Positions 30,001 through 39,000 of a stretch of 48,706 bases of DNA are shown piece by piece. Source of the stretch: Fibrobacteria bacterium (GTDB lineage: Bacteria; Fibrobacterota; Fibrobacteria; UBA11236). The stretch's first letter is position 1; each line of letters opens with the position of its first letter. Made by a program: the position numbers. Location of the stretch: assembly GCA_041746255.1 (NCBI GenBank), contig JBGTHM010000003.1, forward strand, positions 1 to 48,706, written 5' to 3'.

Positions 30001-33000
30001 CCCTTACCCATCCCTGCACCACTTTCTCCCCTACCCAATGGGATTTCATGTTGATGTGCAAGTTGGAAGGGAAGCGGGCGCTAAGCCCCCAACTGTAGAG
30101 ATGGCGAGCAGGAACGAAATCAAGGCGGTTCCCGGACGGAGCAAAAAACGCGCGCCGCTTGTAGCCTATCCATAGATCGACATTCTGCGCCGCAGTCCAA
30201 TGCGCCGAAAAAATTCCGAAGCGGGAATGCATGACTTCGTTGAAATGGTTTACTTCTCCGGAACGGAAAAGGCTTTTTTTCCCGAAGCCGAAAACCGTGT
30301 CTTCCGCGAAATAGGAAACGTCCCATTCCAGCGCGCCACCTACCTGACCATCGAGCTTGAAACCGCCGCGCATCAGGTGGCCACCCACTTCTCCCAGCCA
30401 TCCACGCGGCCGGGCATTGGGATGGTAGATCGCCTCCCGCCCTTCCAAGTCATGCCATATCTCCCGCACATTGGGTGCCAGATCCGAAGCCTTCTCCGTG
30501 AAAACCCGCATCCCCCCGGAAAAACCTCCCCAGGCGCGCTTCTCCCTCCAACGGTTTTCGGTATCGATATGCAGGGAATTACCGAAAAATTTTAGCCGCG
30601 TGTAGGTGTGGGCTGCACGCGCGGAATCCGATGGCTTAAATCCGTAGGCGATATCCGCTCCGGCGAAGAACGGGTGCGGCGCATCCATCTGGATTTCCGG
30701 ATACCCGTAAAAGGGATCGAATAGAGCTGAGGGAGGATTAGCGAAAGACAACTTCACGTCAGTCCAGTCGACATAGGTGTTTAGCTTGATTTGATGTGAG
30801 CCCACCGAAAAAGGCCGCTTCCAATAGGGCCTGATGTGAATCTGCCTCCAAGCCCCTTCCGGGGAAACCTCCAAGATATCTTCCCAGCCTTGCACCTCGA
30901 AGGTAAAGCCGAATTGTCCCTCATACTCCGCTTCGGCAAGGAAGTTGCGACCGCGCCAGGGTATTTGCGCGCCGGAGTAAGGCGACACCGTCCAATTCCA
31001 GAAAAAGCTTCCCTGGGCGCTCAGCATCACGGGTGCGCCCAACCAGCGGAATCCGAAATCCGTGAAACTGCGGGTAGGGATATTCCCGCCAAACCAGGGT
31101 GCATCCGGGCGCGAAACGATGCTGCGCCTCCAATCGTAAGTGACCATGGAGAATTGATCATTTTGTTCGAAGGCAGAAAATATCCATAGCTTGTCGCGCG
31201 GCGAATAAGAGATTGCGCCATATGAGATAGGCGTTTTATTCGGACTACCCTGGGTATGCATGAGTTCCTGTATATGCGGGTCTCCCACTTCGCTCCCCAT
31301 ATGCCCTGAAAGGAAAAAGGTCTGATCGGAAAAATCCGTCCGTGAAAACTGGGAACGATAATCATGGTATTCGTGTTGCGGCCAAAGGAATCGCCGGGAC
31401 AGACCCGGCCGATGGTAGAATTTTTCCCCGGTAACATGTCCATTATAGGTGTCTATCAGAAAATGCGCGTCGGGATGGTCGAGGCGGTGTTTAAAAATCG
31501 GACTCTCCGCCCACACCTCGTTCGGTTTTAGCGGATAAGCAAAATTAGGAAGGGAGTCCATTGCAAATACGATGGAAACCGGAAATGCGAACAAAGCCCA
31601 ACGGACTCGATGCCAAAACCGGTAGACCCTGCCTGGAGCGGGGCTTAGGGTATCGCCTACCACCAACTTTTTCCTACGCCCACATAGAACAGGGGAAAGG
31701 AGCTGTATTTCGGTTCGCTAAAAACCAAGTCCCATTCCCCGCCGAAACGTAATCTCCAATTAGTTCCGAAGTCGAATCGCCAATTCAGGAAAGGGTAATA
31801 CCCGAACTCGGATTCATAGGCGTCCAGAAGATAGACTTTCGGTTTAGGGCTATTTACCGTTCCCACCGTCACGCTATTCAAACCCAGGCCGCATTCCGGA
31901 AGCCAATGGCTGGTCGGTGCATAGCCCAGACCTAAGCCCACCTTGGCGTAATGCAATTTTCGGCTGAACTTTTCCCCCTTCAACCGGCCGTAATGCAAGG
32001 CGCCATGCACCATGAACCGGCCATAATAGGAGGAATGCACCATCAGCCCCCCAGCCGGAAAGGAAGGCGCGTACTCGACCAGGTTGCCCCCAGGCGTAAC
32101 CATACCCAGGCGTGCGGATGTTTCGAAATGGTCAAAGAGAAGTGTCTGGGCCCGAACGGAGTCATGCAGTACGAAAAGAACAAGCAGCCGTAGGAGGAAC
32201 CGGCCTAACCGGTCATAGTGAAAAGGAGTTGAAAGGAGATTGCCTGAAGAAATCAATGGGAAAGGATGCATGAATTGGGTGAGATTTGGGTCCCATCACT
32301 CAGGTTTGGGGAAAAGCTTGGGAAAATACGCAATTACAGGGGAATTTACTTAGCGACCCTAGGGGTTACAAGGGTTGGTCAAATCCTTGCCCGTAAATTT
32401 TGATGGGCATCAAACCGACTTCCAAGGCAATTTTTCATGCTCTCGACTACTCGTTGCATGCAATTACCGGCAAATTCGAACTGCGGAATCCCCGGTTTAT
32501 GCCTATTTTTTATATACAGGTTTTACTCAAAGACCTCTCAGCGATGCCAAAGTTTCCCCAGTCACTTTAGCCAGGAATCGAATATGCCGTTAACCACCCA
32601 TACAATCAAACTTTGGATCAAGCATGCTTTGATGGCTTGCCTGTTACTGACTGCCTTGGGAAATGCGCAGGTAAGCAGTCTTCCCACGGGAGTGACCACG
32701 GAAACATTCTACGATACGACTAAGGCCGGGCTTAGCTTCCGCAAGGACAAGCTGTCCGTCATGGGCATGTCGGAAGTGCCGGGACATCCCATGCACTTTC
32801 TGGTTTTAGGCTACTTCGGTTTCGTCTGGTCCCTTTATCCGAACCCGAGTCAGACCATTAACCCCACGGGGATGATGAACTATTCCCGCAAGCAATTGGC
32901 GGATTTCAATAACGTAACCATGAAAGGTTGGGAGCAGGGCGCCATGGGCGCCACTTTTGATCCGAAATTCAAAGAGAACCGGAATTTTTACATCATCTAT

Positions 33001-36000: not shown

Positions 36001-39000
36001 TCCAGAGCCAATGGCGCTTTGGACTGGCATGACCCCCTTCGTCTGAAGCACCCGCAAATGCAGCCGCTTGCCCAACCGCGCGAACAAGTACTTCCCAATG
36101 AGGGATCGACCAAAATAGGCCCCATCGGCTTGCATGGTTTTTCACGGAATACCGAATTCCAACCCTTTGTGGTGAACTATGCCGGCCTGGCCCGCATCAG
36201 CATGCCCGAAGGCGCAACGCGCGTGGAGCTTTTTTCCTTGGAAGGCAAGCGGGTCTGGAGCCAAACCGCCATGGCCGGAACGGATATGCTGTTGCCCCGG
36301 AGCATCAATCCCGGCGCCTTCTGGGTTCGCTTTCTTCCCTAAAGCACCTGAATAACCGCTGAAGAAACTTTTGCGCCCGTCCCTCTCCTGGGGCGGGCGC
36401 AATTTTTAGGCGCCTGGCCTGGACCTAAACACCCTCGAATTGATCAGAACCCCCGCACCACTGCCACCTTGACCCGTAAATCCTCCTTACGGTCACCGGC
36501 AAGTCCCAGCGTGATCAGGGTTTCGACTACCGACTCGGGTCCGATGTGAACAATCAAACCCGGTTGTAAATCGATAGCGAGATAATCCTCGAAGCCGGTA
36601 GTCTGGCTGGAAGCGATGATACCCAATTCAGCCGACAGCGGTCCCATCAACCGGAGGGTCGGATACCAAGCCACCTCCATGGCCATCAAGGCGTCATTGG
36701 CCACCAAGTGATCGAGAAAGCCGGCTTTGGCCGTTAGGCGCGAAAAAAATTGGCCGCTGGATGCGAATAAATGATGCATGCCCAAGGTCAAACCCCGGTC
36801 GCTGCGCCGATCCGTACTCAACAGCATATCGACATGCAAGCTGGTGGAGCGGTCCAGAGCCAACTTCGCACCGAAAACCATATAGGGCACATTGTCGGGC
36901 ACATCCACCCAACGGGTTTTTAAACCCACGCCGATTTCGAGCTTATCCGAACCGGACAAGGTAAAGGCAATCGGCAGGTCGAAGGAGGGACTGTTCTCCG
37001 CATGGAAATAAGTTCCCGCCTGTACGGTGAAAGCGGAATTATATTTCCCCCGCGGCAAAACCGAATACGACGATTCATGGATGGGGTTCAACGCCAGCAC
37101 CGGCGTCCAGAGGGCAGGGGCCAAGAGAACAATGAATGCACGAGAGAATAATCTGGGTTTCAACATAGCGGAATTCCTTCCTAGAGCGGTGTGGCTTCGA
37201 CCCGCCACTTCCCAACCGTACTCGGTGTGAATCCCCAAAGGTAGGATAATGGCGTTTTTCGGCAAGCAACGCGACCTGGTATGGGCGGGACCTATGCCAC
37301 AATCGGGTTCTATTTGGACAGTTTAACTACCTTTTTGTGCGCTGTGAAAACACCTCCGGCTTCCTCACCATGCCTCTAAGCACATCCAATCCATGGATTT
37401 GGATCGCCTTCACCGCTTTGGTGTTGGTCCTATTAATCCTGGATTTGGGAGTTTTCCACCGCAAGGATAAAATCGTAACCTTCAAGGAAGCCGCGATCTG
37501 GTCCTCTATATGGGTTACCCTCGCGCTGTCGTTTAACCTCGGCCTCTATTTTTGGCTGGGCCGGTCAAAAGCCCTCGAATTTTTCACCGGCTACCTCATT
37601 GAACTCTCGCTTTCCGTCGACAATCTTTTCGTTTTCCTGGTCATCTTCTCCACCTTCGCGCTCCCCCGCCACCTAATGCATCGTGTGCTGTTCTGGGGCA
37701 TTCTGGGCGCCATGATTATGCGGGCCGTATTCATCGGTCTCGGCGCAGCGCTCATTCTCAATTTCCATTGGATCATTTACGTGTTCGGCGGGTTTTTGGT
37801 TTTCACGGGCTTCAAGCTGCTCAAGCATCACGAAGGCGAAGCCGACGTCGCCAACAGCCGGGCCCTGAAACTTTTCCGCCGCTTCATCCCGGTCACCGAC
37901 GAATACCATGACAAAAACTTCGTCATCAGACGGGGCGGCCGCCTCATGGCCACTCCCCTGTTGGCGGTCCTGGTCGTGGTGGAGGCCACCGACGTCATGT
38001 TCGCGCTCGATTCCATTCCGGCTATTTTCGCCATCACGCGCGATCCCTTTATCGTCTATACCTCCAATATCTTCGCCATTTTAGGACTGCGCTCCATGTT
38101 CTTCATGCTCGAAGGGGTGATGAGCCGATTCTATTTGCTGCGCTTCGGACTGGCCTTCATTCTGATTTTCGTGGGCACCAAAATGCTGATCATGGACATT
38201 TATCATATTCCCGTGGCGGTTTCGCTGGGAGTGGTCGCATTTGGCCTTTTCGGCAGCGCCATCGGCTCGATCATTTGGCCGCAAAAGGACCCGGCCAAGG
38301 TCGATTCCAAAAATGGTATGCCCTAAGTAACCGTAGCGGATTAACAACCTTCGCGACCTAAATAGGTTTTTAACGATTCGAAGTGGCGCATTCCCGTCAC
38401 TGCGCAAACGGCGGCCCCCACACCAAATTCCCACAGCTTTTTTTCGTTTTTTAGAGGGTCCGAAGCGGCCTCAACCCCCGTCGTTGTAAGGAGAGCGAAT
38501 TTCCTTGCATCCCGGGAAAAGTCCCTGTAGTATTACACTGGGACGGCAACAACCGTCTTGTCGGCGCGAGGGTGGTTGCGCCGGGATATCAAAGGATTAG
38601 GCATTATGCCTTATGGATTTTTCCCCAACGCGGGTCAAGGTGGTACCGTATCCCAGGGTACGGTGCTGATTGTCGATGAGAACATCGCCCTGCGCAAGAG
38701 TTTGCGGGATTTTCTCAGCCGCATGGAATTCGATGTCCTGGAAGCCGGGAACAGCTATGAGGCGCTATTCTTATGCGCCCAATTCGGCCCCAATATCCGG
38801 GTCCTGCTCACCGAAATCAACCTGCTCCCCGTAAGCGGCATCAAGCTGGCGGAAAATGTTTTGCGCCTTTGCCCGCATATGCAAATCATTTGCATGGCCG
38901 AACATTTCAACGAGGATTTCACCAAATATTGGCTGCGCTATCTCTCAGCGGAATTTCTGCAGAAGCCCTTTACCTATATCGATTTGCACGAGCGCCTGGT

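Follow-up and report, generated by a model that had tools for sequence, protein, structure and literature searches.

Predicted secreted GSDH-family propellers, apparently without the carboxylate anchors of PQQ, are expanded in a genome of Fibrobacteria

Judged from sequence alignment, the residues that anchor the carboxylates of PQQ are lost in all GSDH-family propellers of the genome analysed here, and this loss, which was absent from a preliminary description of the DNA, is their main feature. Because this bacterium and its relatives lack PQQ synthesis and the residues that hold PQQ are gone from the proteins, a different chemistry on carbohydrates is probable. Our preferred, but tentative, reading is that these proteins are secreted oxidoreductases which act on carbohydrates without PQQ and possibly supply DUF1080 and ThuA enzymes, secreted alongside them, that would act on 3-keto-glycosides. 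As a whole, the observations of the preliminary description were confirmed, and its interpretation was supported in part.

An expanded family of propellers

The genome is that of Fibrobacteria bacterium, assembly GCA_041746255.1 (completeness 100%, contamination 1.3%), and the window, that is, the whole stretch of DNA analysed, comprises 48,706 nucleotides of contig JBGTHM010000003.1. A profile search retrieved 38 PF07995 matches in the genome, falling into 35 ORFs that become 33 genes after joining two split pairs, which is the number claimed earlier. C41 and C73 carry the halves of one gene, and their contig ends share a 20-nt overlap; likewise, C125 and C119 probably carry the N- and C-terminal halves of another, with the end of C119 holding a 60-mer found 15 times in the genome. 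A sister group resembling DUF7133/TIGR02604 takes in three of the 35 ORFs and 12 further ones, and with this group the propellers amount to 47 ORFs, or 44 genes.

PF07995 was present in 38 of 39 genomes of the order, with 0 to at least 43 matches per genome. The wide presence described earlier thus stands, but its exact figures (4–67 matches in 19 of 19 genomes) were not reproduced because three genomes of the order carry zero or one match. These data support an expansion specific to the order. Our literature search, whose coverage excluded most subscription papers, found no publication on this expansion or on the two site types described below, and an ESM Atlas search with a window protein returned PF07995 clusters only.

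One subfamily, D, matches TIGR02604/DUF7133 propellers of Planctomycetes and Verrucomicrobia: DUF7133 exceeds its cut-off in four ORFs and is the top Atlas match at 0.96, while TIGR02604 stays below cut-off in all those scanned. Lac161_ORF7 has HEAT and cytochrome c domains, whereas subfamily D lacks both and has an extra beta domain and a sorting tail; its profile-profile match with subfamily A, to which the window genes belong, is weak (73%, 81 columns). In a planctomycete, TIGR02604/DUF7133 propellers and DUF1080 have co-expanded, with 20 and 17 copies (PMC7397252). Because of these related expansions, the general pattern was already described, and the propellers can be called an unrecognised part of a glycan-attack secretome only as regards this order and these site types.

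Predicted secretion

Our own HMM of the C-terminal sorting tail matched 199 proteins in the genome and none of the shuffled tails. The matches include 25 of the 35 PF07995 ORFs, and propellers, counting the DUF7133-like ones, make up 35 of the 199 proteins with T9SS-like tails. By a crude heuristic, a signal-peptide-like N-terminus occurs in 30 of 32 propellers versus 557/1544 background proteins, in agreement with the claim that most have both a signal peptide and a sorting tail. Tails of other paralogues match TIGR04183/PF18962 weakly; some pass TIGR04183, but those of the window do not. SprA, of the T9SS machinery, is encoded in the genome, as are two peptidase C25 proteins. The propellers are putative T9SS cargo, a class that would carry a signal peptide and a beta-sandwich tail of the type A C-terminal domain kind. 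The evidence supports their being the largest recognisable family within a T9SS-type secretome rich in lyases and sulfatases.

A tandem pair in the window

The window contains two propeller genes of subfamily A, with the following features:

32430..32583, + strand: upstream region duplicated with the gene, first copy (by-eye comparison)
32584..34335, + strand: propeller gene 1 (583 aa), with signal peptide, six-bladed GSDH/HHIP-type propeller, linker and T9SS-like sorting tail
32584..32664, + strand: signal-peptide-like N-terminus of gene 1 (aa 1–27; helix 5–27 in the model; hydrophobicity heuristic)
32689..34047, + strand: propeller domain of gene 1 (aa 36–488), with alignment-mapped pocket residues
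34153..34332, + strand: beta-rich C-terminal sorting tail of gene 1 (aa 524–583; tail HMM E 1e-9; strands in the model)
34426..34578, + strand: upstream region duplicated with the gene, second copy (by-eye comparison)
34579..36342, + strand: propeller gene 2 (587 aa), a tandem copy of gene 1 in which the site residues are unchanged

PF07995 matches both ORFs (E 3e-25 and 1e-25; 89.7 and 90.8 bits versus a cut-off of 25), and their products are 87% identical (dN 0.069, dS 0.68). We rejected a misassembled tandem on the strength of this dS and of contigs from one DNA run, possibly of the source sample, that cover the stretch without differences or joints, although none of them spans it. The subfamily of the pair was found in Fibrobacteria only and is under purifying selection, with dN/dS values of 0.06–0.13 across seven propeller pairs. 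The pair has no glycan genes as neighbours.

The predicted structure of the gene 1 product (pLDDT 90.8) is closest to PQQ aldose dehydrogenases, aligning with 2ISM over 313 residues (Z 36.7, rmsd 2.1). Its pocket has Tyr197 at the position of sGDH His144, Ser at Asp163, Arg271-Asn272 at Arg228-Asn229, Tyr274 at Gln231, Cys390 at Ala350, and Gly452 and Thr454 at Arg406 and Arg408. It also holds His450 and His480, two new near-invariant histidines of subfamily A: among homologues, His450 was found in 61/61, His480 in 61/62, Arg271 in 65/65 and Tyr197 in 53/65.

Loss of the PQQ anchors

Pocket geometry was deduced from sequence alignment, using a mapping that returns His, Arg, Asn, Gln, Lys, Arg, Arg for the control, E. 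coli YliI. We took the counts for Arg406 and Arg408 from this mapping because a canonical-side HMM left the C-terminal blades unaligned in 23 of the 35 paralogues; the region still aligns with gaps, and in one paralogue it moves two positions between two mappings. Both arginines together occur in none of 32 readable paralogues, and one of the two in four. Position 377 is Lys or Arg in eight paralogues, although it also varies among canonical relatives (45/150). Conversely, Arg228 is retained in 33/33 readable paralogues, and in 65/65 and 55/55 homologues, and Asn229 in 29/33. The position of Gln231 is aromatic in 29/33 paralogues and in 20/20 best matches from other genomes of the order.

The position of His144 is His in 22 and Tyr or Phe in eight of the 30 readable rows, out of 35, the same count of missing His as previously reported. 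We rejected decay as the cause, given a dN/dS of about 0.1 and the confinement of the change to one clade; to judge from these alignments, His loss marks a single subfamily with a rebuilt site and not scattered decay.

Soluble PQQ glucose/aldose dehydrogenases (Acinetobacter sGDH, 1C9U; E. coli YliI/Asd, 2G8S; Thermus, 2ISM) are likewise six-bladed (Z 26–37) and share with the propellers Arg228-Asn229, the Gly247 loop and, in 22/30 rows, His144. However, the propellers lack the Arg406–Arg408 pair, have an aromatic residue for Gln231, bear a T9SS-like tail and occur in 33–44 copies. They also score far under the trusted cut-off of TIGR03606 (434.55 bits), with 34.8 bits for window gene 1 and 65.2 for the best of 26 paralogues scanned. 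The window proteins themselves keep Arg228-Asn229, but neither His144 nor Arg406/Arg408.

Loss of PQQ anchors has been described for HHIP (PMC4133262) and is common to subfamilies A and B. A quick tree groups both with bacterial HHIP-like sequences with a support of 99; it was made without HHIP itself, seven of the 35 ORFs (four fragments and three of DUF7133 type) and rows shorter than 200 aa. HHIP lacks Arg228/Asn229, whereas the propellers of this genome keep both; the HHIP-like class has His144 in 54/55 and Asp163 in 50/55 sequences, and subfamily A differs from the HHIP/HIPL-like branch in adding Tyr197, His450 and His480. In a wider sample, with 190 of 205 sequences readable, 135 had a non-aromatic floor with both arginines, 48 an aromatic one without them, and 2 + 5 were mixed; these two site types, sampled by two queries, represent two clades and not independent events.

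PQQ synthesis and scavenging

As previously claimed, the genome lacks pqq genes: no pqqC or pqqD was found, and tblastn for pqqB, pqqC and pqqD gave no match. That pqqC is rare in the order also held, with one of 39 genomes containing it; there, the pqq operon adjoins an eight-bladed PQQ dehydrogenase, an enzyme that we did not find in the analysed genome. Missing pqq genes alone mean little, however, because fungi, for AA12, and E. coli, for YliI, use PQQ scavenged from the environment (PMC6881810). We therefore rejected the equation of no pqq genes with no PQQ, since secreted enzymes of non-producers load it from the medium. Of the earlier alternative, scavenged PQQ or other chemistry, the second half gained support, although the absence of pqq genes is by itself no argument for it.

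Dehydrogenases that scavenge PQQ and hold it by alternative residues, with the new histidines as anchors in subfamily A, are a serious possibility, if an unlikely one. The fold, the retention of Arg228 and Asn229, and His144 in most paralogues agree with it, and the missing arginines are no proof that PQQ is gone, because AA12 binds it via different anchors (PMC6881789), with His539/His560 and main-chain amides holding the carboxylates. The AA12 enzymes CcPDH (6JT5) and TrAA12 (6I1T) are also secreted six-bladed propellers of hosts without PQQ synthesis (Z 24–25), and paralogue C83_6 retains His, Asp, Arg and Asn plus Arg at both 377 and 406. However, from the AA12 residue set (His363, Arg430/Asn431, Arg273, Arg621, His539/His560), the window proteins lack equivalents of the catalytic His363 and C-terminal Arg621, and have no blade-1 Arg in the sequence profile, whose register is uncertain in subfamily A. 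AA12 retains Arg621 and adds the blade-1 Arg, whereas Arg occurs at 406 in only 4/32 paralogues and at the blade-1 position in 0/29 among the rows listed. The floor is Gln in the five bacterial enzymes aligned at that position and Val433 in CcPDH, aromatic in none of them. Furthermore, 38 of the 39 genomes would have to obtain from other organisms the cofactor of up to 40 enzymes. A Teredinibacter domain annotated as GSDH, which may or may not belong to these subfamilies, bound no PQQ by ITC (PMC10916295); it is the one bacterial domain so annotated for which we found such a test in the literature covered.

A candidate extracellular oxidation route

For PQQ-independent oxidoreductases, we propose that the propellers, members of the GSDH/HHIP superfamily but not canonical PQQ enzymes, would be exported via T9SS and act on carbohydrates outside the cell. 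In about two thirds of them, which keep His144 and mostly Asp163, a sugar hydroxyl would be oxidised by base-assisted hydride transfer to a cofactor bound otherwise than by the carboxylate anchors of PQQ; this might be a quinone that lacks carboxylates and stacks on the aromatic residue, a metal, or a cofactor derived from the protein itself. The resulting keto-glycosides would be cleaved by co-secreted DUF1080 and ThuA-like proteins. In the subfamily of the window pair the site appears rebuilt further (Tyr197, His450, His480, Tyr274, Cys390), probably with another base or a metal.

The 3-keto-glycoside pathway (ThuAB, LacABC, BT2156-BT2160; PMC8121099) offers a parallel in that DUF1080 and ThuA are co-expanded, and partly adjacent to propellers, in our data; its known oxidants are, however, periplasmic GMC or Gfo/Idh/MocA enzymes, and an extracellular propeller oxidant is proposed here. 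The genome contains 10 DUF1080 and eight ThuA matches, six of each tail-bearing, but no GMC oxidases and no tail-bearing Gfo/Idh/MocA partner; its eight Gfo/Idh/MocA genes could provide the oxidation in the periplasm, which argues against a role of the propellers. ThuA adjoins 5/47 propeller ORFs versus 1/158 other tail proteins (p=0.003), whereas DUF1080 is not enriched near them (3/47 versus 4/158, p=0.20). In other genomes, DUF1080 lies within 5 kb of subfamily-A homologues at 5/19 loci; across the order, a propeller occurs within 1.5 kb of ThuA at 4/30 loci (one from the analysed genome), of DUF1080 at 4/30 and of PL14 at 0/16. Copy numbers co-vary over the 39 genomes, with a partial rho of about 0.4 after genome size. 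No longer, fused ThuA proteins appeared among 681 candidates, which is weak evidence. In all, the link of the propellers to the 3-keto pathway is modest.

The neighbourhood of glycan genes is less informative. We found it for 17/33 propeller genes with a strict gene set and 19/33 with a generous one, versus 322/3656 other genes, close to the 20/33 reported earlier; but other tail-bearing proteins reach 70/164 (strict, p=0.44) and 75/164 (generous, p=0.25), and only the comparison with non-glycan tail proteins in the generous set (35/95) reached p=0.043. The neighbourhood mostly mirrors the clustering of secreted genes, and we rejected it as proof of function.

Many proteins annotated as PQQ-dependent sugar dehydrogenases sit in the branch without PQQ anchors, whose function bears on the redox reactions that take place outside the cell when bacteria break down biomass. 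From a host that does not synthesise PQQ, this genome offers a panel for cofactor and substrates, with more than 40 small, mostly single-domain, predicted-secreted versions and four different pockets. If true, the DUF1080/ThuA link would mean that free-living Fibrobacteria of this little-studied order have an extracellular route for glycans by oxidation and elimination. The question presumably extends further, to HIPL proteins of plants and HHIPL proteins of animals.

Other chemistries

Less compatible with our data, and unlikely, are cofactor-free lyases, hydratases or hydrolases reusing the carbonyl-activating Ca/Arg/Asn site, in subfamily A via His450, His480, Tyr197 and Arg271. The conservation of these residues is in keeping with it, and they would work as in propeller lyases that use His, Tyr and Arg. 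Lyases and sulfatases dominate the secretome, and in fold searches the next matches are propellers of lactonases and lyases. Lactose cleavage has been reported for a purified protein with a TIGR02604 domain (10.1101/047167), but that protein includes a cytochrome c domain as well. In this genome, one paralogue ends up joined to cytochrome c of the SO2930 type (TIGR03806, below cut-off), and distant relatives carry cytochrome c; such fusions in the wider family fit redox chemistry instead, and so do His144 and Asp163, which are conserved among HHIP-like sequences.

A bolder version of the oxidoreductase reading concerns the floor under PQQ, formed by the positions of Tyr274 and Cys390. AA5 copper radical oxidases, such as galactose oxidase, have a Tyr-Cys cross-link, with two His and two Tyr around one copper. 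Subfamily A has this residue inventory (Tyr197, Tyr274, Cys390, His450, His480), although the fold differs, and might have built its own cofactor in the vacant PQQ pocket, combining a cross-link of Tyr274 (or Trp) and Cys390 with a metal site of His450, His480 and Tyr197, which would make it a galactose-oxidase-like enzyme of GSDH fold, with the aromatic-floor PF07995 branch as a PQQ-independent redox class; we regard this as very improbable. An aromatic residue plus Cys occurs in nine of the 11 full-length subfamily-A paralogues listed, and in the C119 half. Cys is found in 53/64 homologues, and the 11 without it argue against its being essential.

Finally, non-catalytic binding proteins, lectin- or adhesin-like, or proteins with non-glycan targets, are improbable: HHIP, a binding protein, is among the nearest solved structures, and proximity to glycan genes is unspecific, and lacking for the window pair, but the invariant Arg228 and the polar pocket conserved within each subfamily fit catalysis better.

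Propeller genes in the genome, the order and the phylum

The genome (4.59 Mb, 53% GC, encoding haem-copper oxidases) gave 38 matches to PF07995 in 35 ORFs, which make up 33 genes once two split genes are paired, the number put forward in the preliminary description; an iterated profile retrieved 12 further ORFs, for a total of 47 ORFs or 44 genes. The paralogues are under purifying selection, with dN/dS values of 0.06–0.13 in seven pairs. PF07995 occurs in 38 of the 39 genomes of the order (median of at least 16 matches), in tallies that take in genome G015, marked unpublished. 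Elsewhere in the phylum, 20 of 111 sampled genomes contain one or two matches, and none was found in one family of 47 genomes. The GSDH-type superfamily itself is already known, as are anchor loss in HHIP (PMC4133262) and propeller/DUF1080 expansions in planctomycetes (PMC7397252); our literature search found no description of the order-wide expansion, the two site types presented below or the Tyr/His/His subfamily.

Several propeller genes look interrupted by insertion sequences (at the ends of contigs C119, C31 and C53, at the start of C125 and at C2:9339-11130), the signs being a 15-copy contig-end repeat and a transposase directly after the C2 fragment. Another genome of the sample, G032 (2.4 Mb), carries seven HHIP-like propeller genes in a tandem array (C21:1500-15000).

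Pocket residues define two site types

Residues of soluble glucose dehydrogenase (sGDH, whose numbering is used unless indicated) were mapped onto a profile of 27 paralogues, and the canonical PQQ aldose dehydrogenase YliI from E. coli, used as a control, returned all the expected residues. Asp163, Gln231, Ala350 and Arg406 were read with their roles in sGDH. His144, Lys377 and Arg408, and the equivalents Arg430/Asn431/Val433/Arg621 in the fungal AA12 enzymes, follow PMC6881789.

Every one of the 33 readable paralogues keeps Arg228, and 29 of the 33 have Asn229. The C-terminal arginines, Arg406 and Arg408, are never found together (0/32), and one of them is present in 4/32. The Gln231 position is occupied by Trp, Tyr or Phe in 29/33 paralogues and is aromatic in the 20 top-scoring matches from other genomes of the order. 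As counted previously by eye, the catalytic His144 is missing from eight of 30 readable paralogues, which have Tyr or Phe; the other 22 have His. In a wider sample, made up of 150 representatives near YliI and 55 sequences distantly related to the window protein, 190 were readable: 135 have a non-aromatic residue and both arginines, 48 an aromatic residue without them and seven are mixed, although the two site types correspond to two clades and these figures are thus a description, not a tally of independent events. From 13 copies found elsewhere in the phylum, the six readable at the Gln231 site are all canonical.

Four subfamilies of propellers

A quick tree, together with alignments, separated subfamilies A to D. 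Subfamily A (11 complete genes plus one that is split) includes the two propeller genes of the window:

32584-34335, + strand, propeller gene 1, 583 aa, PF07995 match
34579-36342, + strand, propeller gene 2, 587 aa, PF07995 match

These genes are in tandem and 87% identical, and their duplication also took in around 150 bp of upstream DNA. The predicted structure of gene 1 (pLDDT 90.8) comprises an N-terminal helix, a six-bladed propeller and, at the C-terminus, a tail rich in beta structure; its nearest folds are PQQ aldose dehydrogenases, HHIP and AA12. Named relatives are Fibrobacteria, and so are all the close homologues of subfamily A that carry a name; with a strict cut-off, the subfamily is present in 12 of the 39 genomes of the order. 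Among 65 homologues, six from this genome, Tyr replaces His144 in 53 and Asp163 is kept in one; His450 (61/61) and His480 (61/62), in the numbering of gene 1, are conserved, Asp55, Glu117 and Tyr217 are also almost invariant, and Cys occupies the Ala350 position in 53/64. Within this clade, four paralogues of the genome have His at position 144.

Subfamily B comprises eight HHIP-like genes. In one of them (C130:152-2689), the propeller is joined to an SO2930-type cytochrome c domain (match to TIGR03806 below cut-off) and to a sorting tail; this protein, too, lacks the PQQ arginines. The nine genes of subfamily C keep the His, with Asp or Asn, C83_6 being the member nearest to canonical. Beside them, outside the nine genes and without placement in the tree, we grouped a giant protein:

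C99:5148-10169, 1673 aa, two malectin domains, GSDH-type propeller and kelch repeats

Subfamily D is DUF7133/TIGR02604-like. It shares the propeller fold (Z 27.4 to 2ISM, rmsd 2.8, 284 aligned residues) and has an extra beta domain.

Tail-bearing proteins and gene neighbourhoods

The genome encodes SprA and two proteins of peptidase family C25, which point to a T9SS by which the propellers would be secreted. A profile of the C-terminal sorting tail matched 199 proteins of the genome, and no shuffled tails; these include 35 propellers, a share that may be overstated because the profile was seeded from propeller proteins, and 69 proteins annotated as glycan-active (sulfatases, PL14, alginate-type and other lyases, BNR_4, Sde182, DUF5060, DUF1080 and ThuA). 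Other expanded tail-bearing families are Sde182-like proteins (7), DUF5060 (5), PL14 (eight matches here versus 0–2 in other genomes of the order) and sulfatases (35 ORFs); for many of the tail proteins, Pfam gave no match.

It had been proposed that 20 of the 33 propeller genes lie near glycan genes. We found a glycan gene within three genes of 17 (strict set) or 19 (generous set, biased towards propeller neighbours), versus 9% of other genes; but the other tail-bearing proteins behave similarly, with 70/164 (p=0.44 against propellers, strict) or 75/164 (p=0.25, generous). For non-glycan tail proteins, the values were 32/95 (p=0.096, strict) and 35/95 (p=0.043, generous). The specific neighbourhood signal is ThuA, with five of its eight genes next to a propeller, in four cases one of subfamily D. 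At 5/19 loci of other genomes, DUF1080 occurs no more than 5 kb from a subfamily-A homologue, but it shows no enrichment near propellers in this genome. Across the order, a propeller is found within 1.5 kb in 4/30 ThuA, 4/30 DUF1080 and 0/16 PL14 loci; the copy numbers are correlated (partial rho about 0.4), with the caveat that related genomes are not independent.

PQQ supply and possible mechanisms

As already reported for this genome, pqq genes are missing: we found no homologues of pqqB, pqqC or pqqD, nor an eight-bladed PQQ dehydrogenase. Likewise, pqqC is still confined to a single genome of the order, now one of 39 instead of one of 19. This genome, G012, carries the sole pqq operon found in the order (contig C65; L110:3846-8994), with a pqqA-like peptide and B, C, D and E, adjoining an eight-bladed PQQ-type protein, a gluconolactonase-like gene and rubrerythrin.

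We tentatively favour a PQQ-independent, extracellular oxidation of carbohydrates, possibly upstream of 3-keto-glycoside cleavage as described in PMC8121099. Fold, residues, copy number and selection are established by the analysis, whereas substrate, cofactor, secretion and pathway are inferences. The genome has eight Gfo/Idh/MocA genes, none among the tail proteins scanned, and no GMC oxidoreductase. Use of scavenged PQQ, held by alternative residues, is less likely. The missing pqq genes alone prove little, because fungi and E. coli acquire the cofactor from their medium (PMC6881810). Lyase or hydrolase chemistry without a cofactor is unlikely. Binding without catalysis is improbable. The mechanism may not be the same across subfamilies. 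Two results, matched by family annotation, might bear on it as precedents: a Teredinibacter domain annotated as GSDH reportedly showed neither PQQ binding nor glucose dehydrogenase activity (PMC10916295), and a protein with a TIGR02604 domain, once purified, is reported to have set glucose free from lactose (10.1101/047167).

Surroundings of the window pair

No glycan gene occurs among the three genes on either side of the pair. Upstream, these are a HisKA-bearing ORF and two ORFs for which Pfam gave no match; downstream, they are another Pfam-less ORF, TerC and a response regulator. By eye, the three Pfam-less ORFs (29816-32271 and 36444-37265) have the look of outer-membrane beta-barrels. 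A haem biosynthesis cluster (hemA, C, D and L) with a cytochrome c assembly protein at its head occupies 3964-9139, and FG-GAP repeats are fused to an M57 (HEIGH) metallopeptidase at 46650-48431. Two DUF4423 genes (23126-23953 and 41832-42674) each lie upstream of uncharacterised, exported-looking genes, and DUF4423 also recurs near propeller genes of other contigs.
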